Of a stretch of 64,000 nucleotides of DNA, positions 16,031-29,949 are shown piece after piece. The position numbers and the translations under genes are program-made. The notes under the pieces are model-generated. The model saw only the letters and a program-made list of their open reading frames with translations, was not told the DNA's origin and ran no database searches. The stretch lies in NCBI GenBank assembly GCA_041554435.1, contig JBFFLX010000001.1, positions 377-64,376 of the forward strand, written 5' to 3'. Each line of letters starts with the position of its first letter. The first letter of the stretch is position 1. Source of the stretch: Bacteroidales bacterium (GTDB lineage Bacteria > Bacteroidota > Bacteroidia > Bacteroidales > F082).

Positions 16031-17203
16031 TTAGTTCATGCTATTTAAGGGGAACTTCATTCTAATTACAGCTCCTGCATCATCACTATTTAGGGCTTCT
16101 ATACTGCCATTATGCATATCTATTATCAACTTAACTGCGGCAAGAGAAAGTCCTGATCCTTCAATGTGTGATACATCTCCGGCACCAAAGAGTTCAAAAA
16201 TTCTATTCAAAGCCAAAGGGGAAAAACCAGGTCCATAATCTTGAATTTCAACACTAAGGTGTTGTTCATTACGTTTTACATTAATATCAATGGGTGAATT
16301 TTTACCTGAATATTTATATGAGTTTTCAAGTATAAGTATAATGCTCTGTCGTATAAGGTCTGAATCAGCGAAAATTAAGGGTTTTTCATCGTTTGAATAA
16401 TAATTAATGTCAATATCAGCATTGTTTTCTTTTAAGAATTTCTTTATGGCCGATTGAATTAGGTGATTAACCGATACTGAAAGGAAATCGGGTTGATATT
16501 TTTTTATTTTTAAACTGGTTATAAGGAGAGCCATATCGGAAAATTGCACTAGTCTTTCTGATACTTTTTTGAGGTGTTCGATATATTCGTTCTGACTAGT
16601 ATCTACTTCAGTTTCGCCTAATAGGTTTGCCAATCCGATTATACCATTTAAAGGTGTCCTTAATTCGTGACTAATTATTGAAAGAAAGTCGCTCTTTGTT
16701 TTATCCAGTTTCTCAAGTAGTGAGTTGGCTTGTTGTAATTGCTTTGTTCTTTCCCTGACTTTATTTTCCAACTCAATATTATTTTTTTCTAATTGTAGTT
16801 TTTGATCCTGTAGTTGTATTTGTGTCTTAACACGGGCAATTAATTCTGAAGAATTAAAAGGCTTTGTTATATAGTCCTGTCCACCGGTTTCGAATCCTTT
16901 AACAATACTTTCCATATCAGCCTTTGCTGTTAAAAAAATTACAGGAACAGAAGCGGTTTGTTCACTCTTTTTGAGATGTTTGCATACTTCATAGCCATCC
17001 ATTTCAGGCATCATAATATCGAGCAATATCAAGTCGAAATTTTGTGTATTAGTAATCTTTAATGCCTGTCGGCCATTTTGAGCATATGCTATTTGATAAC
17101 CATTGCTAGAAAGTATATTTCCCAGGATTTGGATGTTTCTAGCAACATCATCAACAATAAGTATTTTTTTCTTTTCTCCTACTTCAGGTCTGCTATTAGT
17201 CAT
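16031..17203 (-). CDS. Hybrid response regulator-histidine kinase (N-terminal REC, coiled coil, HisKA, HATPase_c)
   Basis: REC features: ILIVDD, DLILLDIMMPEMDG, FLTAKAD. H-box ISHELRTPLNGIIG. G-boxes DYGPGF and GSGLSL. Confidence 0.88.
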   Translation of the reverse strand: MTNSRPEVGEKKKILIVDDVARNIQILGNILSSNGYQIAYAQNGRQALKITNTQNFDLILLDIMMPEMDGYEVCKHLKKSEQTASVPVIFLTAKADMESIVKGFETGGQDYITKPFNSSELIARVKTQIQLQDQKLQLEKNNIELENKVRERTKQLQQANSLLEKLDKTKSDFLSIISHELRTPLNGIIGLANLLGETEVDTSQNEYIEHLKKVSERLVQFSDMALLITSLKIKKYQPDFLSVSVNHLIQSAIKKFLKENNADIDINYYSNDEKPLIFADSDLIRQSIILILENSYKYSGKNSPIDINVKRNEQHLSVEIQDYGPGFSPLALNRIFELFGAGDVSHIEGSGLSLAAVKLIIDMHNGSIEALNSDDAGAVIRMKFPLNSMN

Positions 17204-20200
17204 TGAATATAAATTTTAATTTAGATAATAATATTTCTATATTGTCGATATCAAATTTTGTTAATGCCACTTTCAATTCTTCGCTGAACTGTATTAAGGA
17301 CATCAATTTCTTTTGCTCAGAAAACTGCTTGAGTTTATGGTTAAATACTTCGATATCTGATATTAATTTGCTGTTTGAAATTTTTAAATAGTCTTCCATA
17401 AAGAACTCTTTCATTTCAGACTTAATTTGATTGTCAATTAGGTTTAATTCTAATTCATCCAACAAATTTGATGAATTTTCAAATTGCATTATTTCATTTT
17501 CAGTAATTTCTTTAGTTGTTTCTGCCCTTCTATTTTTATTTAATGTAACAACTTCAATATCATGCAAGTAGATAGTAAACACACTCCCTTGTCCAACTTT
17601 ACTTTCTAATTCCAGTTTACCATCCATCATTTCGGCTAGTTGTTTTGTAATTGCTAAGCCTAATCCACTTCCTTTGTTACTATCCTGTGATAATATGCTT
17701 CCTTGTGTAAAGGCAGTAAATATTAGTTTTTGGTCTTTTTTTGATATTCCCGGCCCAGTATCAGAAATGACTATTTGTAGATCTATATGACCTTCTTTCT
17801 TGCTCTTTCTGAAGATGTTGAAACTTACTTTAATCTCGCCTTCCTTCGTAAATTTGGAAGCATTTCCTACTAAGTTTAGCAACATCTGTCTAAGCCTTAC
17901 TCCATCAATTTTTATATATTCCTTAAATTCATCATTTTGTTCAACTATGAACTTAACACCTTTGTTTCTTAATTGGATATAAAATATTTGCTTTATTTCA
18001 TTTATTATGGTGTTTAATGAAACAGAATTGTAGTTGAGGTTTAGTTTTCCTGCTTGTATTTTAGATAGGTCCAGGATGTCGTTTATAAGAGTAAGCAAAC
18101 TTTTGCTACTTGAATCTATTGCTGAAATATAACTTTGCTTTTTACTGTCTTCTTCAAGTTTTAATAATAATTCAGTAAAACCAATTATAGAGTTCATTGG
18201 AGTTCTTATTTCATGACTAATATTAGCCAGAAAAGTGCTTTTTGCTTCATAAGCCTCTTGAGCCTCTTTTATTGCATTTTCAACCTCTTTGTTCTTTTGG
18301 AGCAGGGCTTTATTACTTAATTTTAACTCAATTTGTGAATTTTTTAAAGCGAGTTCTGCCTTTCTTCGCTTTGTAACATCCTCCACTAAGCCCTCTATAT
18401 ATTTAATTTCTCCATTGTAGTTTCTTACCAGCCAGGCACTTTCCAAAACATACATTTCTTTGCCATTGGCTCCTATCCACTTTTCTTCTCTACCAGTAAT
18501 AACTCCTTTTTCTTTAATTTCTTCAATAAATTTTGGTCGGTTGAAATAGTTATCTGCAATATTGATCTTGTATAATTCCTTTTCATTTTTATAACCAAGA
18601 GTTTTTATGAGATTTTTATTTGCAAACAGTATGTCTCCCTTTTCATTTGTTTGATATATCCCAATGGTAGCATTATCAACTATTCCTTTAAATTGCTCTC
18701 TACTTTCAGCCAAAGAAATGTTTAACTGACTGAGTTTTTCTTTTTGTATGGTAATTTCTTTGTTTTTAAAGGCTAAAATACTATAGTTTTTGCGGCTAAC
18801 TTTAATGCGGGCATTCACAAAAAATATCAAAATAAAAGTGATTAGAATTATTAATGCAGAAAAAATAATAGTAAAGAATCTTGAATTTTTCTCCCTTTCA
18901 AGTTGTAATTTTTGAATTTCGTTTTTTTGTTTTAGTAGTTGATTTTCAGTTTCTTTTTTCTCCGATTCGTATTTTATATCAAGTTCTTCAAGAATCTTAT
19001 TCGTATTCTCTTTAAAAGTGTTTTCTTCAAGGGTTGTATAGTCTTTTAGGTATTTATAAGCCAAATAGTAGTTTTTCTGTCGTGTATAAAAATCAGATAT
19101 TGATTTTAGGGCTTCCAACTCCACATCTGTAAAATTTATTTTTCTACTCGACAAAAGAGCCTTTTTTAAATATATTTCTGATGAATCATCAATAGTTAGT
19201 TTGTTAAATATCTGACCCATAATCAAATAACTAATCGAAATTCGCTTCTCGTCGCCAACTTCATGTTTTATTTGAAGAGAATTTCGCTGATAAAATAATG
19301 CAGAGTCTAAGTTGCCAAATTTATAATAAGCTTCTCCTATATTACTTAGGGCTATTGAATACAGTCTTTTGTTGTTTACCTTTTTATTTAATAATATTGC
19401 TTCACGATTTATTTCAATACATTTCTTAAAATCCTCCTTTTTAGTATATATATCTCCAATATGCATTAAAGCATTCATTTCATTTAAGTAATCATCATTT
19501 AGTTTATAATATTTGTAGGCCTGATGGTAATAATCCATGGCCCTGTCGTATTTTTTCCAGTTTTGCATTACTACGCCTAAACTAATTGATATCCCTGCAA
19601 GCCCATTGTCGTCGCCTATATCTTCATAAATATCTCTGGCATTTTGCATCAAACCTATTGCTTTTTCATAATCGCCCCAGGTTGAAACAACCACAGCAAG
19701 CCCTTTCATCGATTTTGCTATGCCTTGCCTATTACCATTAGTATTGTAAATATCAAGTGCCTTTTGGAAATTTTCTTCTGCAGTTCTATATTGGCTTAAA
19801 TTATAGTAATTCGAAGCAATATTGTAAATTACATCAGCAATATTCGAACTGTCACCTTTTGTTTTCTGGTTTTTAAGAATTAACTGAAGAGTGGTGTCGG
19901 CAGCTTTATAATCACATGCATGACTTTGTTTTTGCCAGATAACAGATAATAATGAATCAACAGCTTCTTTGTTGTTAAGGTTTCTATAAAAAGATAAGCC
20001 CAATTGATCATAAAATATTGATCGGTTTATATTAGTTTTTGCATAAAATAATGACAGTTGTTTTGATGAGTTAATCTTTTCTTGTAAATTTAAACTATCA
20101 CCATTATTAAACTCTCTAAGCAAACTGTCGTACTCTATATTAGATGCACTTATGGTTGAAATAAGTACTAAAAGACAACTTCCCCATATTAACTTAAAAA

Positions 20201-20246
20201 TGTAGTTTTTGGCCTTAAAATAGTATTTGCTGTAAGTAGTGCCCAT
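17196..20246 (-). CDS. TPR-repeat, PAS-containing transmembrane sensor histidine kinase
   Basis: N-terminal anchor, about 8 TPR-like repeats, coiled coil, TM helix FFTIIFSALIILITFILIFFV and a PAS region. H-box ISHEIRTPMNSIIGF and GSGLGLAITK. A C-terminal tail of about 120 aa contains FNHKLKQF. Confidence 0.88.
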   Translation of the reverse strand: MGTTYSKYYFKAKNYIFKLIWGSCLLVLISTISASNIEYDSLLREFNNGDSLNLQEKINSSKQLSLFYAKTNINRSIFYDQLGLSFYRNLNNKEAVDSLLSVIWQKQSHACDYKAADTTLQLILKNQKTKGDSSNIADVIYNIASNYYNLSQYRTAEENFQKALDIYNTNGNRQGIAKSMKGLAVVVSTWGDYEKAIGLMQNARDIYEDIGDDNGLAGISISLGVVMQNWKKYDRAMDYYHQAYKYYKLNDDYLNEMNALMHIGDIYTKKEDFKKCIEINREAILLNKKVNNKRLYSIALSNIGEAYYKFGNLDSALFYQRNSLQIKHEVGDEKRISISYLIMGQIFNKLTIDDSSEIYLKKALLSSRKINFTDVELEALKSISDFYTRQKNYYLAYKYLKDYTTLEENTFKENTNKILEELDIKYESEKKETENQLLKQKNEIQKLQLEREKNSRFFTIIFSALIILITFILIFFVNARIKVSRKNYSILAFKNKEITIQKEKLSQLNISLAESREQFKGIVDNATIGIYQTNEKGDILFANKNLIKTLGYKNEKELYKINIADNYFNRPKFIEEIKEKGVITGREEKWIGANGKEMYVLESAWLVRNYNGEIKYIEGLVEDVTKRRKAELALKNSQIELKLSNKALLQKNKEVENAIKEAQEAYEAKSTFLANISHEIRTPMNSIIGFTELLLKLEEDSKKQSYISAIDSSSKSLLTLINDILDLSKIQAGKLNLNYNSVSLNTIINEIKQIFYIQLRNKGVKFIVEQNDEFKEYIKIDGVRLRQMLLNLVGNASKFTKEGEIKVSFNIFRKSKKEGHIDLQIVISDTGPGISKKDQKLIFTAFTQGSILSQDSNKGSGLGLAITKQLAEMMDGKLELESKVGQGSVFTIYLHDIEVVTLNKNRRAETTKEITENEIMQFENSSNLLDELELNLIDNQIKSEMKEFFMEDYLKISNSKLISDIEVFNHKLKQFSEQKKLMSLIQFSEELKVALTKFDIDNIEILLSKLKFIFND

Positions 20247-20254
20247 TGATAAGT

Positions 20255-22753
20255 TTAAATAATTAGTGTTTTATTTAATTCATCATCAAACGATTTAATG
20301 TAGTTTTCAATTCCTACTATATCAAAATGGTTTATTAAATCTGATAGTTCTTTTGAATAATTTATTAGTTGTTCATTGTTAAATTCATTTGCAATTTTTA
20401 TAAGCAGTTTATTAAAAGAATTAAAATGGTCAAACATATTCGACTCCTTGGCCATTTTAAATTCATTCTTCTGAAGGTCATATAACTTGTTTAATAAATC
20501 TCTGTCAAAAGTTTGAAAGTTCAATTTAAGTTCCGAATTTATTTTCGAATTATTATCGTAAGAGGATTCTCCATTTCCAATAATTTTGATGTGCTCGTTA
20601 GATTCAATTTTATCGGAATGTAGAATTTCAATATCATTGAATTCTAATATGAAAGTACTTCCTTGTCCTATCTTACTTTCCAGTTTAATATTGCCATTCA
20701 GAACTTCAACTAATTTTTTTACAATAGCCAATCCTAATCCCGTACCTTCAGTGTTGCTGGAGGATTCAATCTGATAAAATGATCTGAAGATATTTTTCTG
20801 TTCTTTTTCAGAAATTCCAATTCCATTATCTATTACTTTTATTATTAAATCAGTTGATTCCTTATTCTTGTTTTTTGCGGCAATATCCACTTCAATTAAT
20901 CCATTATCAGTAAACTTTATGGCGTTACTTATAATGTTAAGTAATATTTGTCTAAGTCGTAAATCATTGAAATTTATAGTGTTAGGAGTATTTTTATTAA
21001 TGTTGAATTTTAATTTGTTGTTTTTCTCTTTGGCTCTGTTTTCAAAAATTAAATTTAGTTCATCACATAGGCTTTTAATTTCCAAAGCTTTGTATTTAAC
21101 AAGAATTTTCCCGGCTTCTATTTTCGATAGGTCTAAAATATCATTAATAAGAACCAACAATATTTTTGATGAGACTTTAATATAATTTAAATAATGCTTT
21201 TGAACTTCACTTTTTAGTGTTTTTTCCAGTAATTCGGTAAAACCAATTACACCGTTTAAAGGTGTTCTTATTTCATGGCTCATATTAGCCAGAAATTCAC
21301 TTTTGATATTATTACTTTTTTCTGCCTCTTGCTTTGCCAAATATAAATCGTCGGCTAACTTTTTTAAGTTAAATCTGGCTCTTTCTATTTCTTCATTTTT
21401 CCTTTTCAGAATCCTATTCAACTTATTTTTTGATTCCAGATATATAGCCAGAAATGATATTGCTCCCATTGCAATTAAAAAAGCCGCAAAAATCAACCAT
21501 GAATATACTCTTTGTCTTTTTAATTCTAACTGATTGATTTTGGACTTTTGTTCCAACAATGAAATTAAATTTTCTTTTCTTTCACTTTCAAAACTAATTT
21601 TCAATCTCGCGATTTCCTTTTGCAGTGAGGAATTCATAATAGAGTCTCTATACATATTAAAAGTATCAGAATGCAATAGGGCAAGTTGATAATTTTTCTT
21701 TTGATAGTATGTATTTCGCAAACCTTTATGTGCATCTTTAATAGTTTCTTTTGCTCCTATTTTTTTTGCAATTACAAGACTTTTTTGGATAAAGTTATTT
21801 GCCAAATTTGTTTTGCCAAGTTTATAATTTATTAATCCTAAATGCAAATAATCCTGCGCCTGGAAAATTTTATCTCCATGATTTAGGTTAATGTTTAAGG
21901 CTATTTGATAATATTTTAAAGCTTGCTCGTATTCTCCTTCTTCTTCATAAACAGCCCCTAAATCCGAATAACAAATTCCTTGTCCTTTCAGGGATTTAAT
22001 TTTTTTGTTTAAATCCAGCGAAAGCCGATAGTATTCTTTCGCTTTTTTAAAATCTTTTTTCTGGAAATAAATATTCCCCAGATTATTCAGATTTATTGCT
22101 CTTCCAAGATCATCGCCACGCTCTTCTTCAATAGAATAACTCTGTTGGAAATATTTGAGGGCTTCATCCGGATTGCCAATAATAAGTTGGATATTTCCGA
22201 GGCTATTTATCGCTACAGCCTGACTCTTTTTGTTGTTTGTTAATTCGGCCAGAGTAAGTGCTTTTTGATGGTATTCAATGGCTTTCGTATAATCATCAAT
22301 TCTACGATACACAACTCCCAGATTATTGTTGAAAATAGATCCTAGTTCTTTGTTACCTGTTTTTTCAGATATTTCCAATGCAAACTGATGGAACATAATT
22401 GCCGTGGAGTATTCGCCATTATTTCTTTTTATAACCCCTAAATTGTCGGCGAGTTGAGATAAAAAATCAAGCATGCCTGTTTTTTCCGCCAATTCTCGTG
22501 CCCTATTAAGGTATTTCTGTTTCCTGAGTGTGGAATTAATATCACCGGAATCAATAGAAACAATGTTAATATAATCCAGAATTAATATGCTGTCTTTTGT
22601 CCTGGGATTATTTTCTTCTGTTAATATGCTGTCTGAAGTCGGGTATTCGTTATAAGTTCTCTGGCTTAACACATTAGAAAATGTGAATAAGTTTCCCCAA
22701 AAAATCAATAATACTACAAGTCTTATAATTAGCATATTAGTGGATAAAATCAA
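20255..22753 (-). CDS. TPR-repeat transmembrane sensor histidine kinase
   Basis: TPR repeats, TM helix [24 protein letters not shown]-box [15 protein letters not shown] and [10 protein letters not shown]. The C-terminal tail is homologous to that of the neighbouring kinase. Confidence 0.88.
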
Positions 22754-22819: not shown

Positions 22820-24103
22820 CTATGCTAATATAGCAATTAATACCGGCTCGTCTCCACTATTGTCAATTTCAGTTATTATTGTTTTATAAAATGTGTTTTT
22901 AATAAATTCTTCGCCTTTAATTCTGATGGGGATGTAATTTTCGCCATGTCCATGAGCAAAACCTTTATCAGTTTTTTCCACCAAAACGGTTTGTTGTTTC
23001 CCTATGAAACTTTTGCGGTATTCGAGTCGGTGTTGCTCTGAGGCATTTCTAATTATTTCACTTCTTGCTGTTTTTATCCTGTCGGGAATATGATCAGGAA
23101 ATCTTTCTGCTCTGGTTCCTTTTCTTAATGAATATTTAAAAGTGTGAATATGACCAAACTTCACTTTTTTTATGAAATTTAAAGTTTCGTTAAATTCCTC
23201 CTCAGTTTCACCGGGAAAGCCCACAATTATATCTGTGGTTACATTAAATTCAGGGTACTTTCTTCTTACTCTTTCTATTAAAGTGCCAAACTCATCGGCT
23301 GTATACATTCGTCTCATGCGTTTTAGAATGTTTTCAGAACCGCTTTGAAGACAAATATGCATATGAGGAGTTAGTTTTGGGTTTTCAAACAAACGGAAAA
23401 AACTTTCGGAATAACCATCGGGTTCAATTGATGAAATTCTTACTCTGAAGTCACCCGGAATGTCTAATATTTTTTCCACTAAGGCTTCAAAATCCACGCC
23501 TTCGTATTCATATCTTCCCAGATTTACACCTGTTAAAACAACTTCTTTAAAGCCATAATCAATAACCTTTTTTATATTGCTAATTACCTCACTTACAGGC
23601 CTGCTTGTTGCTCGCCCCCTTACTTTTGGAATAATACAATATGTGCAAAACTGATTGCAGCCATCCTGTATTTTTATAAAACTTCGTGTGTGAAATGTAT
23701 CTTTTGCGGCTTCATAACCAAATAAATCTTTATCGTAGTTGTCGGGAGCAACAATTTCGCCTTTGGCATGCGCATCAATTATTGAAAATACTGATGTTTT
23801 ATGATCATTATCAATCACATAATCAACACCTTCTTTTTGTTGTAATTTTTCCTTATAATTTGTTGCCATGCATCCGGTTACAACTGTAATGGCATCTTTA
23901 TTTTTTTTGTTGGACCGGCTTATCTCCTGACGGGATTTGTGGTCGCTTTGGTTGGTAACAGTACAAGTATTAATGATATAAACATCAGCTTCATCATTAA
24001 AGTCAACTATATCGTAACCATTGGAAGAAAATTGAGAAACTATCGAATCGGTCTCAAAAATGTTAAGGCGACAACCAAGCGTTTTAAATGCAACTTTTTT
24101 CAT
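22820..24103 (-). CDS. mtaB: Radical-SAM methylthiotransferase, MtaB type (tRNA ms2t6A37)
   Basis: MTTase N-domain (FKTLGCRLNIFETD), radical SAM CNQFCTYC, and no long linker. The MtaB subtype call is from memory. Confidence 0.8.
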   Translation of the reverse strand: MKKVAFKTLGCRLNIFETDSIVSQFSSNGYDIVDFNDEADVYIINTCTVTNQSDHKSRQEISRSNKKNKDAITVVTGCMATNYKEKLQQKEGVDYVIDNDHKTSVFSIIDAHAKGEIVAPDNYDKDLFGYEAAKDTFHTRSFIKIQDGCNQFCTYCIIPKVRGRATSRPVSEVISNIKKVIDYGFKEVVLTGVNLGRYEYEGVDFEALVEKILDIPGDFRVRISSIEPDGYSESFFRLFENPKLTPHMHICLQSGSENILKRMRRMYTADEFGTLIERVRRKYPEFNVTTDIIVGFPGETEEEFNETLNFIKKVKFGHIHTFKYSLRKGTRAERFPDHIPDRIKTARSEIIRNASEQHRLEYRKSFIGKQQTVLVEKTDKGFAHGHGENYIPIRIKGEEFIKNTFYKTIITEIDNSGDEPVLIAILA

Positions 24104-24114
24104 ATGCCTTGTTA

Positions 24115-25536
24115 TTAGTTAAGCAAGATTCCTTCTGTGGAAAAAGGTACTGCCGATTCAACTTTTACTTTAACATATTGTCCAATTAAACCATCATCAT
24201 CCGATTTAAATCGAATAATTATTTTACCTTCGGTAAGAGCCGATAAATATTCCTGATTTCTGTCGCGTCCCCTAACTAAAACCTTATATGTATTTCCAAT
24301 CATTTTTTTATTGTAATCGTAGGAAGTTTTTACTAATTCCTCTGTTAATTCATGGAATCTTTCTTTTTTTATTTCTTTACTCACAGTGTCTTCCCATTTT
24401 GAACTTACTGCACCGGGTCGAGGTGAATACTGGGCAATATAGGCCATATTATATTTAAACTCACTCATTATACTTTTAGTGTTTTCAAATTGTTCATCAG
24501 TTTCGCCCGTGAAGCCAACAATTATGTCAGTAAAAATTGTTGCAGTTGGTAACATTCTTCTGATACTGTGAATAATTTGTCGGTATTTTTCCATCGAATG
24601 CTTACGGTTCATATTCTCTAGAACCTGATCATCGCCTGATTGAACAGGGATGTGGATTTGCTTTGCAAGACATTTATACTTTGCTATTACTTCCAAAACA
24701 TCATCATTCATATCCCGGGGGTGAGGGGAGGTGAAATATACCCAAAAATCTTTGCTGCTTTCTTCTCCGTATTTACCTATCTCCTCTAATAACTGAGCAA
24801 AATTTATTTCTTCGCCCTTCTTGTCGAGACCATAGGAATTAACATTCTGACCTAAAAGTGTAATCGATTTATAATCATTATCAACAAGTCGTTTTAGTTC
24901 TTTAATTATTTCCGATGAGGGACGCGATACTTCTCTTCCTCTGGTATAGGGTACTGCACAATAAGTACAAAATTTATCACATCCGTTTTGTATGGGAATA
25001 AAGGCTTCAAAGCCGGAACTATATTTGGGTGTAATACTCCAAAAATCTTCTATATTTTCGTTTTTAATTACTTTAGAAGGTTTGGGATTATTAATTTGAA
25101 CATCATTCAATTTGAATTCAGCAGGATTAACCGATTTGTTATTCTTCTCCAGATCCTGAAATCCTGCATCCAACGATTGTGTGCTTGCAGGGCTTACAAT
25201 ACCATACTGACTAATCATTTGTGGTAGTTCAGGCAAGTCGCTCATTTTGAAAACTAAATCAAATGTTTTTAAAAAGTTTTCCTTGTCGGCAGGTAAAACA
25301 CAACCGGATACAAATGTTAAGAGGTTCTTTTTCTTTTTCCATTTGTTCCATTTGCTAATTCTGGAATATACTTTATTAATACCCTTCTGTCGAACTGAAC
25401 ATGCAATTATTCCCAGCAAACTGGCCTCTTCTTCTACATCAGTCTCTTCAAAACCCATCTTATCAAGGATTTTTTGAACTCGTTCGCCATCAGAAATGTT
25501 CATCTGGCAACCTAACTGAATTATATGATATTTCAT
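24115..25536 (-). CDS. miaB: Radical-SAM methylthiotransferase, MiaB type (tRNA ms2i6A37)
   Basis: QLGCQMNISDGE, ACSVRQKGINKVYS, radical SAM CDKFCTYC and a C-terminal TRAM-like end YVKVKVESA. Confidence 0.78.
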   Translation of the reverse strand: MKYHIIQLGCQMNISDGERVQKILDKMGFEETDVEEEASLLGIIACSVRQKGINKVYSRISKWNKWKKKKNLLTFVSGCVLPADKENFLKTFDLVFKMSDLPELPQMISQYGIVSPASTQSLDAGFQDLEKNNKSVNPAEFKLNDVQINNPKPSKVIKNENIEDFWSITPKYSSGFEAFIPIQNGCDKFCTYCAVPYTRGREVSRPSSEIIKELKRLVDNDYKSITLLGQNVNSYGLDKKGEEINFAQLLEEIGKYGEESSKDFWVYFTSPHPRDMNDDVLEVIAKYKCLAKQIHIPVQSGDDQVLENMNRKHSMEKYRQIIHSIRRMLPTATIFTDIIVGFTGETDEQFENTKSIMSEFKYNMAYIAQYSPRPGAVSSKWEDTVSKEIKKERFHELTEELVKTSYDYNKKMIGNTYKVLVRGRDRNQEYLSALTEGKIIIRFKSDDDGLIGQYVKVKVESAVPFSTEGILLN

Positions 25537-25701: not shown

Positions 25702-26199
25702 ATGGCAGAAAAAGGTAATGAAACAGAAAATCTTTCGAGGATTAAAGAAATTCTTTTTGGAGAGGATTTGACCAGTATAGATGAGAGATTAGAAAATTTT
25801 AAAAAAGAAAATGCAGTTGCTTTTCAGGATATTAAGGATTATTTCAATAAGCAAGCGGAAGGGCTTGAGAAACTAATAAATGAGAATCAAAAACATTTTG
25901 AAACCAATGTATTAAAAACCGAAAAACTTCAGGATAATTTTAAAGAAAAAGTTGAGCAGGATATTGCCAATATGCATCTTGAAATTAATAAGGAAAAGAC
26001 TGAGGTTCAAAAGATGATCCAAAATCTTGAGATCCAAAACGAAGAAAAATTTGAAGGCCTGATAAAAAATATAAATAATTCTGTAACTGAATTAAAAGAT
26101 CTCCTAAATAGTAAGTTTGATGAACTAAATGATAAAAAAACTGACTCTGCGGTAATAGCCGAATTATTCCAAACCATGGCTGATAAACTTAAAGCTTAA
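25702..26199 (+). CDS. Small coiled-coil protein, first gene of the GTPase operon
   Basis: 165 aa, K/E/N/Q-rich with heptad-like periodicity, and no TM helix or signal peptide. Confidence 0.6.
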   Translation: MAEKGNETENLSRIKEILFGEDLTSIDERLENFKKENAVAFQDIKDYFNKQAEGLEKLINENQKHFETNVLKTEKLQDNFKEKVEQDIANMHLEINKEKTEVQKMIQNLEIQNEEKFEGLIKNINNSVTELKDLLNSKFDELNDKKTDSAVIAELFQTMADKLKA

Positions 26200-26213: not shown

Positions 26214-27950
26214 ATGACTTCTAAAGGTGATAATAAGGGAATATTTTCAGGTTTATCAGACATAAAGATGAATGAGTTACGCAAGATGATTATTGGCCTC
26301 GATAATGAGGACCTAAAGCGTCTTGCCTTATTTGTTAATGATCCGGAAGCATTTTCTGCAGAAATTAGTGAACTTCTGCCCAACAGCATAAAATTAATGC
26401 TTGAGAGCGGCAAAATTTCATACGATGAACTTGTTCCTGTTTTTGAGACAGTTCTTCAGGATAGTATTAAAAAAGATCCACAGAGTCTGGCAAAAATTCT
26501 ATTTCCAATTATGATGCCCGCAATTAGAAAGGCCGTTTCTGAGGATTTAAAGAAAATGCTTGACTCAATCAATTCAACACTGGAGCACAGTTTTTCACCA
26601 AAAAGGATAGGCTGGAGATTCCAGGCAATGTTTAGCGGTAAGTCCTATGCCGAAATTGTATTGTCCAATGCGTTTATATTCAGGGTAAAACAAGTTTTTC
26701 TTATACATAAAAAAAGTGGACTTCTCCTAAACGATGCCTTCGATAATTCTTTGTCGGTTACCAAAGATTCCGATATGGTATCTTCAATGCTAAGTGCCAT
26801 TAAAGATTTTGTTCAGGACTCTTTTGATGTGGACCAGAGTAATGAGTTGAATACTATTAATGTAGGTAAGTTTAATATTTGGATAGAACAAGGCCCTGAA
26901 GCAATTATTGCAACCATTGTTGAAGGTGATGCTCCAGCATATTTGAGAGAACAAATGAAAGATGCCATCGAAAAAATACATCTTAGATATTCTCTCGAAT
27001 TGAACAAATTTGAAGGAGATACTGCCGTGTTTGAAAAAACAAAGCCCTATCTCGAGGCTTGCTTACTTAGTGAACATAAAGAAAGTAAAAAACGAAAACC
27101 AATTACCATAATTGTAATCTTTATATTAATTATTCTGGGCCTGGGCTATTTATCCTACATTAGTATTGATAGATATTTAAGGATAAGTGATATGGAAGAT
27201 GCATTAAATAGTCAGCCGGGCATATTAATTACTGATGATGAAACTAATAATGGTAAACGGGTATTTATAGGTTTGCAGGATCCTCTGTCGGTTAACCCAT
27301 ATACGATTGCAAGTCAATATGGTTTTGATACTTCTAATGTGAGTTTTAACTTTAAAGGCTTTATATCACTTGATAATTCATTAGTATTAAAACGAGCTTA
27401 TTCCATTTTGAATCCTCCTGAAAAAGTTATATTGCGTATTGAAAACCAGACTCTATTTGTAAGTGGTGAGGCTGAAGAGGACTGGGTAAATATGGCAAAG
27501 TCAAAATATTACTCAATTCCAGGGATTGATAAACTCGATTTGTTGGAGTTAAATATATTAACCAGTAATACCATTATCGAAAAAAGAGAGTTTTCCTTAG
27601 AGGAATATTATTTTGAGTTTAAGTATTTGAAAGTAGAACTAACGGATAATCAAAAGATTAAGTTCGCAAATTTAATAAATGAGGTTAATCAGGTATTAGA
27701 CTTTAATTTCTCACAGGATTCAATACCTGTTATTGTGGTAATAGGACATACCAGTTACGAAGGTAATCCTGAAGCAAACAAAAAAGTAGCCTTTGATAGA
27801 GCTCAGGAATTTATAAACCTAATGATTAATGCAGATATTCCAATGGAAGTTCTGGTTCCGAAAACTGATTATGTGGAAGATATAGATTATAAGTATCCGG
27901 TTAGATCCGTATCATTTAAAGTTATTTATTCAAAACCTGAAGACTTATGA
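26214..27950 (+). CDS. Single-pass membrane protein with a cytoplasmic Roadblock/LC7-like segment and periplasmic BON-like and OmpA-like domains
   Basis: TM helix at residues ~296-316 after a KKRK stop-transfer. Residues ~152-257 (FIFRVKQVFLIHKKSGLLL...MVSSMLSAIKDFVQDSF...NIWIEQGPEAIIATIVEG) look Roadblock-like. C-terminal VVIGHTSYEGNPEANKKVAFDRAQEF is a degenerate OmpA-family motif. Confidence 0.65.
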   Translation: MTSKGDNKGIFSGLSDIKMNELRKMIIGLDNEDLKRLALFVNDPEAFSAEISELLPNSIKLMLESGKISYDELVPVFETVLQDSIKKDPQSLAKILFPIMMPAIRKAVSEDLKKMLDSINSTLEHSFSPKRIGWRFQAMFSGKSYAEIVLSNAFIFRVKQVFLIHKKSGLLLNDAFDNSLSVTKDSDMVSSMLSAIKDFVQDSFDVDQSNELNTINVGKFNIWIEQGPEAIIATIVEGDAPAYLREQMKDAIEKIHLRYSLELNKFEGDTAVFEKTKPYLEACLLSEHKESKKRKPITIIVIFILIILGLGYLSYISIDRYLRISDMEDALNSQPGILITDDETNNGKRVFIGLQDPLSVNPYTIASQYGFDTSNVSFNFKGFISLDNSLVLKRAYSILNPPEKVILRIENQTLFVSGEAEEDWVNMAKSKYYSIPGIDKLDLLELNILTSNTIIEKREFSLEEYYFEFKYLKVELTDNQKIKFANLINEVNQVLDFNFSQDSIPVIVVIGHTSYEGNPEANKKVAFDRAQEFINLMINADIPMEVLVPKTDYVEDIDYKYPVRSVSFKVIYSKPEDL

Positions 27951-28441
27951 TAAAAAAGAAAGTAGTAATGTTGGGTTCATTTGCTGTTGGTAAAACCAGT
28001 TTGGTACAGCAGTTTGTGAACAGTATTTTCTCAGAGAAATATCAAACTACTATTGGAGTTAAAATAGATCAGAAAACTGTGAATATTGATGGACAGGATA
28101 TAAATCTTCTTTTATGGGATATTCATGGAAACGATGATTATCAGAAAGTTAAGCCTGCTTATTTGATGGGATCATCGGGTTGTTTTATTGTTATTGATGG
28201 TACCCGCAGGGCAAGCCTGGATGTGGCAAACGAACTTATTGAAACAGTGAATAAAACTGTTCCTAAGGCTTCAGTAGTAGTATTGATAAATAAACTGGAC
28301 CTGAAGGATGATTGGGATATTAATGCCGATGATATTAGCGACTTTAAATCCAGAGGTTTTACGGTGATAGAAACAAGCGCAAAAACAAATAATGCAGTTG
28401 ATGAAGCATTTGATACTATTACTAAATTAATGATGAATTAA
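27947..28441 (+). CDS. Ras-superfamily (Rab/Rup-like) small GTPase
   Basis: G1 GSFAVGKT, G2 YQTTIGV, G3 WDIHG, G4 NKLD, G5 ETSAK. 164 aa. An ATGA start/stop overlap joins it to the upstream gene. Confidence 0.88.
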   Translation: MIKKKVVMLGSFAVGKTSLVQQFVNSIFSEKYQTTIGVKIDQKTVNIDGQDINLLLWDIHGNDDYQKVKPAYLMGSSGCFIVIDGTRRASLDVANELIETVNKTVPKASVVVLINKLDLKDDWDINADDISDFKSRGFTVIETSAKTNNAVDEAFDTITKLMMN

Positions 28442-28443
28442 GT

Positions 28444-29949
28444 ATGCTGAAAAATCTCCCCAAGGAAATAGTTAAATATTTAGTAGAAGAACTACCTCCG
28501 TTTACAGGTTTGTTACTTGTTAAAACAGATGAGAACGGAATCATAGAAGGTTATTATGGTCAGTATATAGATTATTTTACTGAAGAGCCCAAAGCCGGAA
28601 AAAATATTCATGATTATAGTCCGGCACTTTTTTCAATGATACCCCCTTTGGTTTCTCCTATGGTATTGAATAATATTAAATCTACAACTCAAAATTATGC
28701 GGATATTCATATTATTGAAACTTCAGCCGAGGCTTATTGGGTGATTTTCATGGATCAAACAAATGAAGTTGAAAAAATAAGAGATATATTACAACAAATA
28801 AATTCAAAGAAACTAAAAATTGAATCAGGAAATATAAGCGAAGAAAAGAGTTTGTTTAATGTTTTTGAATATCTTCAACTCAGGGTTATAGGAGATAAAA
28901 TTGCCATTATTGAAAGTCCTGTACCTCTATGGTACAAAAGGTTAAATCACGATTATATTTCTGATGATAATATAGTTTATACTGAACTATTTCCTTATTT
29001 AGAAGTATTTGAGTACGAAGCCAACGATTTTTGGTCAACTATGATTAATGGAAGACTTAAGTCAGGAATATGGACCGAGTCGACTGCCGATGGCAATGAT
29101 ATTACCCTAAATGCTACTGCTATTTATTATAATGGTGAAAAATATCTTTTTATACAAGAAGTTGAAGAGGGTTTAGACGGAACTCAGATGGCATTGCAAA
29201 TGGCAAGAGATCAGAAACTTGCCTATGAAAAACTGGAAAAAGCCGAGAGGAAATTAAAAACTCTTTTAGAATATAAGGATAAGTTTGTGTCGATAGTATC
29301 ACATGATTTGCGCTCTCCGGTAGCAGCAGTTTTAGGCATTGCAGAACTTTTATTAAATGATAAAGAAGAAATAGAAAAACTTTCAGATTTCAATAAGGAT
29401 ATGCTTGTGAGCATCAAAGAAGAAATGCTTCGCTTGCTCGACTATAATGATAAACTCTATCATTGGTCGAACCTTGAATTGGGAAATTTCGAGATTGTTA
29501 AAACTAAGTCTGATTTGCTAAAAATTATTGAAACTGCCAAACGAACGGCTAATCAGAAAATGCAGGCTAAAAATATCAGCTTCTCAACAAATCTGAAGAA
29601 GCCCCTTCACGTAAATGTTGATACAACTTTATTCCTTCAGCTAGTTAATAACCTTATGGCAAATGCCATAAAATTTACACCAGTAAATGGAAATATTTCA
29701 ATTGATGTTAAACATACAAAGAACAATATAGAATTTGCAGTTATTGATTCAGGCGTTGGAATGCCCCAGGAAATATGCAAAAATATTTTCAAAGGCTTTG
29801 CCCGAAACAGTACTGTAGGTACAGGAGGTGAGAAGGGTACCGGATTAGGCTTGGGAATTGTAAAGAAAATAATTGATGCCCATGGATTTCAAATAAAAGT
29901 TGAATCTAAAATAAATGAAGGGAGCCAGTTTATTATATCAATTTCATAA
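28444..29949 (+). CDS. Soluble sensor histidine kinase with an uncharacterised ~250-aa N-terminal region
   Basis: H-box VSHDLRSPVAAVLG, N-box NLMANAIKFT, G-boxes DSGVGM and GTGLGLGIVKK. No TM helices. Starts 2 nt after the GTPase stop. Confidence 0.88.
   Translation: MLKNLPKEIVKYLVEELPPFTGLLLVKTDENGIIEGYYGQYIDYFTEEPKAGKNIHDYSPALFSMIPPLVSPMVLNNIKSTTQNYADIHIIETSAEAYWVIFMDQTNEVEKIRDILQQINSKKLKIESGNISEEKSLFNVFEYLQLRVIGDKIAIIESPVPLWYKRLNHDYISDDNIVYTELFPYLEVFEYEANDFWSTMINGRLKSGIWTESTADGNDITLNATAIYYNGEKYLFIQEVEEGLDGTQMALQMARDQKLAYEKLEKAERKLKTLLEYKDKFVSIVSHDLRSPVAAVLGIAELLLNDKEEIEKLSDFNKDMLVSIKEEMLRLLDYNDKLYHWSNLELGNFEIVKTKSDLLKIIETAKRTANQKMQAKNISFSTNLKKPLHVNVDTTLFLQLVNNLMANAIKFTPVNGNISIDVKHTKNNIEFAVIDSGVGMPQEICKNIFKGFARNSTVGTGGEKGTGLGLGIVKKIIDAHGFQIKVESKINEGSQFIISIS

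Follow-up and report, generated by a model that had tools for sequence, protein, structure and literature searches.

The protein encoded at positions 26214-27950 on the forward strand of the window, a stretch of 64,000 nucleotides of contig JBFFLX010000001.1 of a Bacteroidales bacterium (assembly GCA_041554435.1), is very probably the membrane component of a Group 1 Rup system. The Group 1 Rup neighbourhood was defined by Wuichet and Sogaard-Andersen (2014; PMC4316618) and comprises a coiled-coil protein, a protein that combines a conserved N-terminal domain with a transmembrane (TM) segment and an OmpA domain, a small Rup GTPase without the Gln of the G3 motif, and an output protein. The output is typically a kinase or a cyclic di-GMP (c-di-GMP) enzyme with an invariant Gln in its N-terminal region, which was speculated to act in trans, and the N-terminal domain of the membrane protein was left unassigned ("Unc"; PMC4316618). 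Among bacterial proteins, the Group 1 Rup GTPases are most closely related to the eukaryotic proteins Rab, Ras, Rho, and Ran, and Rup GTPases are not predicted to pair with MglB homologs (PMC4316618). We assign the window protein to this system because the order of the four genes matches the published one and because its GTPase has the G3 Asp, but not the Gln. The architecture is therefore already known from a described, experimentally uncharacterised system; the initial annotation of this DNA, which had been made from the nucleotide sequence alone, knew of no characterised example. New are the predicted fold of the unassigned domain, the pair of BON-like modules, the loss of the OmpA Asp in one clade, and the two-module N-terminus of the kinase. 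In the literature searched, no subsequent study of Rup systems or of BON/OmpA proteins coupled to a GTPase was found, nor any published regulation of Group 1 Rup GTPases.

The target open reading frame (ORF) starts with ATG, encodes 578 amino acids (aa), has the boundaries originally given for it and is the second of four closely packed genes on the same strand. The first gene of the unit (25702-26199, forward strand) encodes a cytoplasmic coiled-coil protein of 165 aa with weak matches to coiled-coil-type Pfam families only, and ends 14 nt in front of the target gene; a coiled-coil gene precedes the target in the majority of the Bacteroidota loci and also in part of the planctomycete loci. 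The third gene (27947-28441, forward strand) encodes a Rup-type small GTPase of the Ras family of 164 aa (Pfam Ras, E = 1.1e-35), whose ATG overlaps the target stop codon by 4 nt (ATGA). Only 2 nt past the GTPase stop codon follows the gene for a soluble histidine kinase of 501 aa (28444-29949, forward strand; Pfam HisKA and HATPase_c). A Kyte-Doolittle scan found no hydrophobic TM-like segment in the other three proteins of the unit, the 165-aa coiled-coil protein included. The window thus holds a Bacteroidota instance of the four-component system with a histidine kinase as output.

Linkage of the target gene to a GTPase gene was examined in 80 loci from named genomes of Bacteroidota, Cyanobacteria, Desulfobacterales, Planctomycetota, Acidobacteriota, Zetaproteobacteria, Gammaproteobacteria, Nitrospira, Spirochaetes, Entotheonella, and one alphaproteobacterium. 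The GTPase gene lies directly downstream of the target gene in 58 of these loci, and the target stop and the GTPase start overlap by 1-8 nt in 41 of the 58, which strongly supports the link to a GTPase proposed at the outset; the two genes are apparently translationally coupled. Among the loci with enough flanking sequence the GTPase gene is present in 68 of 76, and the linkage is seen in Bacteroidota, Cyanobacteria, Planctomycetota, Acidobacteriota, Zetaproteobacteria, Gammaproteobacteria, and Nitrospira. Desulfobacterales have the unit divided into two divergently oriented pairs, with the coiled-coil and membrane protein genes on one strand and the genes for the GTPase and a sigma54 activator on the other (L053, 2014-6845). 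Desulfosarcina alkanivorans (L058, 2609-6845) has the sigma54 activator, and no GTPase gene is present within the 11 kb examined. At the same locus, genes for an MscS-type channel and a VWA-OmpA protein lie downstream.

The GTPase of the window has the motifs G1 GSFAVGKT (27974-27997), G3 DIHGN without the Gln (28118-28132), G4 NKLD, and G5 SAK. In a comparison of 66 loci the G3 Asp is present in all of them and a Gln at the catalytic position in two only, this position being occupied by Glu in 47, by Leu in eight, by Asn in three (including the window), and by Arg in three loci. Furthermore, the P-loop of these GTPases has a Phe, rarely a Tyr, at the position of Gly12 of Ras. With a bulky residue at this position a classical Arg finger should be blocked, a hint that GTPase activation follows an unusual mechanism.

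The membrane protein itself belongs to a large family, as its cytoplasmic half matches 6,272 clusters (50% identity) at E ≤ 1e-3, 2,470 of them at ≤1e-30, in at least ten phyla, and because so many representative clusters match, the family is real and not due to chance. The conserved domain is nearly always N-terminal in proteins with total lengths of 375-975 aa. The best conserved part is the cytoplasmic segment of residues 81-280, whereas the OmpA end is least conserved, and a subset of members of about 450 aa is devoid of the OmpA domain. The identity of distant members to the window protein reaches 59% over residues 181-200, and the most conserved segment of the alpha/beta domain across phyla is the helix that corresponds to alpha1 of longin (alpha2 of Roadblock). 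A single TM segment at about residue 300 is likewise kept across phyla. In the databases the relatives are named "OmpA family protein", "porin", "MotB", or "flagellar motor protein MotB". The nearest homolog among the named genomes is found in a metagenome-assembled genome of Marinilabiliales, with 81% protein identity.

The alpha/beta domain of the cytoplasmic half (residues 145-281; 26646-27056, forward strand), which is part of the region left unassigned so far, probably has the fold of the longin/Roadblock class, as judged from structure prediction. Two AlphaFold models were used, the first for the full protein with an alignment of 52 relatives (mean predicted local distance difference test score, pLDDT, of 74), and the second for the cytoplasmic half alone with a more diverse alignment of 31 sequences with identities down to 31%. 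In both models residues 154-281 are folded as beta-beta-alpha-beta-beta-beta-alpha-alpha with a short preceding helix of residues 145-153, and DSSP assigned strands to residues 154-165, 171-176, 214-217, 220-226, and 230-238, and helices to residues 186-205, 242-264, and 271-281. The predicted structure matches the longin topology including its two C-terminal helices. With respect to the Roadblock alpha-beta-beta-alpha-beta-beta-beta sandwich, the helix 145-153 lies in front of beta1 and the strand order agrees, but longin proteins give the better matches. In the model of the cytoplasmic half, the strands beta4 and beta5 and the C-terminal helices reach a pLDDT of 85-92.

Foldseek searches with this model point in the same direction, as the 50 best matches are almost all recognisable members of the longin/Roadblock superfold. 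The best match is the sigma subunit of the AP complexes (AP sigma; E = 8.6e-5, TM score 0.69), followed by other longin proteins, namely zeta-COP, Mon1-Ccz1 with Ypt7 (5.9e-4), Sec22b, Bet5/Trs23 of TRAPP, and Fuzzy-Inturned of CPLANE, whereas the Roadblock matches, i.e., the C-terminal domains of the Rag proteins, Ego3, an Asgard Roadblock protein, dynein LC7, MglB, and MglC, rank lower (E = 2e-3 to 5e-3, TM scores 0.41-0.57). AP sigma, zeta-COP, Sec22b, Mon1-Ccz1, and TRAPP together span E values from 8.6e-5 to 2e-3. Many of the 50 best matches are GTPase platforms or guanine nucleotide exchange factors (GEFs), such as Mon1-Ccz1, TRAPP, CPLANE, Rag-Ragulator, and MglB. The search with the full-length model likewise returned the longin-fold proteins AP sigma and COPI zeta at 1e-4. 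Moreover, weak Pfam matches below threshold to longin families were obtained for three of 35 members (Intu_longin_1, 0.002; Fuz_longin_1, 0.076), and these are the first longin domains of the Mon1/Ccz1/Fuzzy/Inturned group of GEFs. By predicted structure, the longin proteins AP sigma, Mon1-Ccz1, and TRAPP resemble the domain more closely than MglB or LC7 does, and its two C-terminal helices make it more longin-like. The initial annotation had recognised a Roadblock/LC7 pattern here and had called for domain assignment by hidden Markov model (HMM) and structure. That assignment recovers the OmpA-like domain and the superfold, but a match to the Robl_LC7 HMM was not obtained, so that the predicted superfold stands and the domain cannot be placed within the Roadblock/LC7 family.

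In front of this domain lies a cytoplasmic helical region (residues 16-141; 26259-26636, forward strand), for which neither a structural match with Foldseek nor a sequence match was found. Residues 16-153 are helical in both models, with a pLDDT of 50-80, in agreement with the helical residues 1-150 proposed before. Within this region, for which the motif comparison gives a pLDDT of 50-77, lies LFPIMMPAIRKAV (residues 93-107, 26490-26534). No other linear motif of the family is as invariant, and P98, P102, A103, I104, and R105 are kept across phyla. Behind the alpha/beta domain follow a KKRK patch (residues 292-295) and the only TM helix (27087-27164 for patch and helix, residues 292-317, forward strand). 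The Kyte-Doolittle scan located the sole hydrophobic segment of the protein, ITIIVIFILIILGLGYLSYISI, at residues 296-317 (27099-27164), where the KKRK stop-transfer and one TM helix at about 27099-27161 had already been noticed. Its flanks contain five Lys/Arg on the N-terminal and two on the C-terminal side, and therefore the N-terminus is predicted to be inside. By the positive-inside rule the target is thus predicted to be a single-pass protein with a cytoplasmic N-terminus, as previously suggested.

The periplasmic part comprises about 261 residues, close to the 260 estimated from the sequence, and is modelled with a pLDDT of about 90. Past the TM helix the model consists of two beta-beta-alpha-beta units, each after a helix, and a C-terminal alpha/beta domain. 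The former can be described as two BON-like alpha-beta-beta-alpha-beta modules (residues ~318-385 and 388-449; 27165-27560, forward strand), which is in line with the two BON-like segments originally seen. In the Foldseek search with the full model, Rv0899, which contains a BON and an OmpA-like domain, ranked first (E = 2.6e-5 over 260 aligned columns), and the BON proteins BonA and DolP were found at 2e-4, all three with low whole-chain TM scores. The window protein and its close relatives have no match to Pfam BON (PF04972), whereas the longer relatives P0398 (35.8 bits) and P0440 (38.9 bits) exceed the cutoff of 27 at the position of the second module. The residues G336, G347, G353, D356, R394, and G418 of the BON-like region are conserved in all phyla.

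The OmpA-like domain occupies the C-terminus (residues 460-575; 27591-27938, forward strand) and contains the string VVIGHTSYEGNPEANKKVAFDRAQEF, on which an OmpA/MotB-like motif had been proposed. A scan of the target against Pfam and NCBIfam gave a weak OmpA match only (PF00691, E = 0.002, 18.8 bits, below the gathering score of 27.2). However, 49 of 52 relatives match OmpA (best 8.6e-8), distant relatives pass the threshold, and the family profile matches solved OmpA C-domains at 1.5e-3, and therefore the homology to OmpA is established. Foldseek matches of this type are PAL, OmpA, OprF, the C-terminal domain of MotB, and TagL (E = 1e-4 to 1e-3, TM scores 0.6-0.72). In canonical OmpA-like domains such as those of A. 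baumannii OmpA and the Pal complexes, the Asp and the Arg of GHTD...RA bind diaminopimelate. The motif of the window protein reads GHTS..N..VA..RA, with Ser514 at the position of the Asp, whereas R529 is kept and is conserved across phyla. We compared the motif between the close loci (L001-L039) and the distant loci (L040-L080). The 37 close relatives, all Bacteroidota, share (G/A/S)(H/F/Y)T(S/N)...N..(V/I)A..RA (residues 511-530 of the window protein, 27744-27803), while about 20 distant relatives from Cyanobacteria, Desulfobacterales, Acidobacteriota, Gammaproteobacteria, and one divergent Bacteroidales keep GHTD...N..LS..RA. Of the cell-wall anchor postulated in the initial annotation the OmpA-like fold is thus upheld, but with a Ser at the diaminopimelate-binding position the tether itself is unproven.

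The kinase of the window is a soluble protein without TM segment and consists of two N-terminal modules, A (residues 1-132) and B (residues 137-268), followed by HisKA (278-345) and HATPase_c (394-500). The region of modules A and B corresponds to 28444-29247, and the N-terminal module shared among the outputs is not recognised by Pfam. The comparison included the window kinase and the outputs of the loci L040, L041, L047, L060-L068, L070, L077, and L080. Module A is the only N-terminal domain in cyanobacterial, Mariprofundus, and Methylococcaceae outputs, and module B is the only one in planctomycete, acidobacterial, and gammaproteobacterial outputs, whereas the Bacteroidota kinases carry both modules in tandem. 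Each module has a conserved Gln in its closing helix, within LQQIN in A and LQMAR in B. An hhalign comparison of the two modules gave a colinear alignment of 106 columns (P = 0.0012, 20% probability), and it is possible from this sequence comparison that they arose by duplication. The catalytic part behind the shared module varies and can be a class III cyclase, a HisKA_3 kinase, a hybrid kinase, a sigma54 activator, or a GGDEF-EAL protein. Two of these output types are not named in the text of PMC4316618, namely the class III adenylate/guanylate cyclases that occur in Cyanobacteria and Mariprofundus, and the sigma54 enhancer-binding proteins that occur in Gammaproteobacteria and Desulfobacterales (examples: L040, 7213-8226; L061, 6555-7571; L068, 7704-9494).

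Putting these components together, we slightly favour a complete mechanism in which the target is the envelope-anchored input subunit, the longin-like platform sets the nucleotide state of Rup, and Rup controls a swappable output. The BON/OmpA-like ectodomain would report or fix the state of the envelope, i.e., contact to the membrane or the cell wall, via the TM helix. The longin-like domain, which like MglB, Ragulator, and Mon1-Ccz1 is probably dimeric, would dock the GTPase on the inner side of the membrane and would control its nucleotide state, and GTP-bound Rup would then engage the modules A and B of the kinase and switch autophosphorylation. Most longin platforms are GEFs (Mon1-Ccz1, TRAPP, DENN; see also PMC10933270). 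Because of this, and because the module with the conserved Gln in the output is the better candidate for a GTPase-activating protein (GAP), an exchange-factor or recruitment activity of the longin-like domain is favoured.

Several observations weigh against this mechanism. The fold rests on predictions of moderate confidence with a pLDDT of 53-92 over the domain, and the key conserved helix 186-205 (26769-26828), which reads DSDMVSSMLSAIKDFVQDSF, has the lowest values of the domain in both models (53-66); such a helix would fit an interface that is ordered by a partner, which is not evidence of one. At the sequence level, no Robl_LC7 match was found in Pfam for the full protein or for the isolated domain of 35 members at E ≤ 10, a profile search of the PDB sequences with the isolated domain gave no Roadblock or longin match, whole-protein searches of the PDB sequences gave nothing for the cytoplasmic half, and a significant match to a longin sequence family was not found. 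The comparison with an MglB profile by hhalign resulted in a probability of 1.4%, a negative result that is weak because the profile is shallow (Neff 1.7); its seed was checked against PDB 6h5b, and none of the sequences from the MglB search was less than 76% identical to the query. A GAP or GEF activity is deduced from fold and synteny, and the choice of GEF over GAP is a guess. The target also has invariant or near-invariant residues, Arg105, Arg135, and Gln160, that could serve GAP chemistry. Furthermore, no GTPase is present within about 5 kb in eight loci whose flanks are long enough. With respect to the ectodomain, the position of the Asp in the OmpA motif is occupied in all 37 close relatives by Ser or, in one of them, by Asn, and VA or IA replaces LS. 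From these residues, peptidoglycan binding in this Bacteroidota clade may be weak, altered, or lost, and since the Asp is a Ser in the clade a tether to the wall is uncertain here.

A rather unlikely alternative is that the target is a passive anchor or scaffold for the GTPase and the coiled-coil partner, comparable to Ragulator, without any change of the nucleotide state and without sensing. Roadblock/longin dimers are often pure platforms, the Rag C-terminal domain and the Ragulator-type subunit Ego3 are among the structural matches, and BON and OmpA-like domains are typical anchoring modules. However, many members of about 450 aa do without the OmpA domain and the canonical Asp is lost in the clade, and for these reasons anchoring is hard to reconcile as the main role; moreover, conservation is much stronger in the cytoplasmic half than in the ectodomain.

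It appears still less probable that the target is a GAP in the style of MglB, which supplies or positions catalytic residues, with the output as a plain effector, even though MglB and MglC are among the structural matches and the target offers the near-invariant Gln160 together with the invariant Arg105 and Arg135. Since the GTPase has no catalytic Gln of its own, some partner must complete the active site. Yet there is no sequence relationship to MglB, the longin matches outscore the Roadblock matches, and the Phe at the position of Gly12 should, from Ras biochemistry, hinder a classical Arg finger. In addition, the outputs bear their own helix with a conserved Gln, the residue that was proposed to act in trans (PMC4316618).

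We regard it as very unlikely that the alpha/beta domain is a PAS- or profilin-like sensor and that its linkage to the GTPase reflects only a shared pathway. Longin and Roadblock lie in a wider PAS-like fold class (PMC3521125), but no PAS, GAF, or profilin structure is among the 50 best Foldseek matches of the cytoplasmic half, and the overlap of stop and start with the GTPase gene across phyla argues for the stoichiometric co-production of binding partners. Finally, a stator of the MotB/TolR/ExbD type that couples ion flow to the cell wall is hardly conceivable and was rejected, and the comparison with stator and Tol-Pal proteins in the initial annotation does not hold: the single TM helix before an OmpA-like domain, the matches to the MotB C-terminal domain, and relatives named "flagellar motor protein MotB" fit it, but the TM helix contains neither Asp nor Glu, stators have nothing comparable to the large conserved cytoplasmic domain, and the adjacent genes encode the coiled-coil protein, the GTPase, the kinase, methylthiotransferases, and aconitase instead of a MotA/TolQ/ExbB-type protein.

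With the Group 1 Rup system of PMC4316618 the window shares the same four components as well as a region with a conserved Gln in the output, which may be the Gln of that paper. What goes beyond the paper are the predicted longin/Roadblock fold, the two BON modules, the cyclase and sigma54 outputs, and the two-module N-terminal region of the kinase. In MglA-MglB of Myxococcus and Thermus, a GTPase gene is likewise coupled to the gene for a protein of the same superfold (MglB 6izw_C, Foldseek E = 4.8e-3). However, MglB is a small soluble dimer, whereas in the target the domain is joined to a TM helix and to domains of the envelope and has no sequence similarity to MglB, and the GTPase is a Ras/Rab-like Rup and not an MglA, as it has the G3 Asp that is absent from the MglA family (PMC4316618). 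The actinobacterial conservon (CvnA-D, Mfp), consisting of a membrane histidine kinase, a Roadblock protein, a DUF742 protein, and an MglA-type GTPase, is also a four-gene unit in which a small GTPase is combined with a histidine kinase and a Roadblock-type fold, an analogy already drawn in PMC4316618. There, the kinase is in the membrane and the Roadblock protein soluble, whereas here the longin-like protein is in the membrane and the kinase soluble, and the GTPase families differ.

The eukaryotic longin platforms (Mon1-Ccz1, TRAPP, CPLANE, AP sigma, COPI zeta) are the best structural matches (E from 8.6e-5 to 4e-3, target TM scores up to 0.69), and their partner GTPases belong to the Ras/Rab-like clade as well. 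They are soluble complexes that are recruited to membranes, whereas the target is an integral protein with cell-wall domains, and significant sequence homology between them was not found. Rv0899/ArfA of M. tuberculosis has the same order of TM helix, BON, and OmpA-like domain; in contrast to the target, neither Rv0899/ArfA nor DolP or BonA has a large cytoplasmic domain or a GTPase partner.

The genes that flank the unit are unrelated to it. Upstream lie two divergently transcribed genes for radical-SAM methylthiotransferases, and downstream follows a gene for aconitase; the G+C content is even at about 33%. The methylthiotransferases are tandem paralogs of the MiaB/RimO/MtaB type (22820-25536, reverse strand) with UPF0004 and Radical_SAM domains, to which the second adds a TRAM domain. 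They lie between the Rup unit and two adjacent genes for paralogous sensor kinases of 1016 and 832 aa (17196-22753, reverse strand), each with an N-terminal TPR array, HisKA and HATPase_c, and a hydrophobic stretch in between; the first also contains a PAS domain. A scan for sigma70-type promoters and terminators gave counts equal to the shuffled expectation, with models of the sigma70 type that do not cover Bacteroidota promoters.

Irrespective of its precise activity, the target represents a large family of transmembrane signalling proteins with more than 6,000 sequence clusters, and the predicted longin/Roadblock platform is a concrete and testable candidate regulator of Rup, with the helix 186-205, H165, Q160, R105, and R135 as residues to be addressed. 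The fold assignment bears on the origin of the eukaryotic Rab GEFs of the longin type. In papers on the evolution of longin and Roadblock, longin is derived from archaeal or MglB-type Roadblock proteins, and no bacterial partner of Rup GTPases is mentioned (PMC3521125; PMC10933270). A tentative idea, more probably wrong than right, is that the domain acts as a genuine exchange factor of the longin type on the bacterial GTPases related to Rab, Ras, Rho, and Ran. If it were true, the pairing of a longin platform with a GTPase of the Ras/Rab clade would have existed in bacteria before eukaryotes, and it could have entered eukaryotes together with a Rup-like GTPase and not only from an archaeal Roadblock protein of the MglB type (PMC3521125; PMC10933270). 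These proteins would then define a new type of transmembrane signalling in bacteria, with a receptor anchored in the envelope that acts by way of a small GTPase on interchangeable outputs, namely kinases, cyclases, c-di-GMP enzymes, and sigma54 activators.

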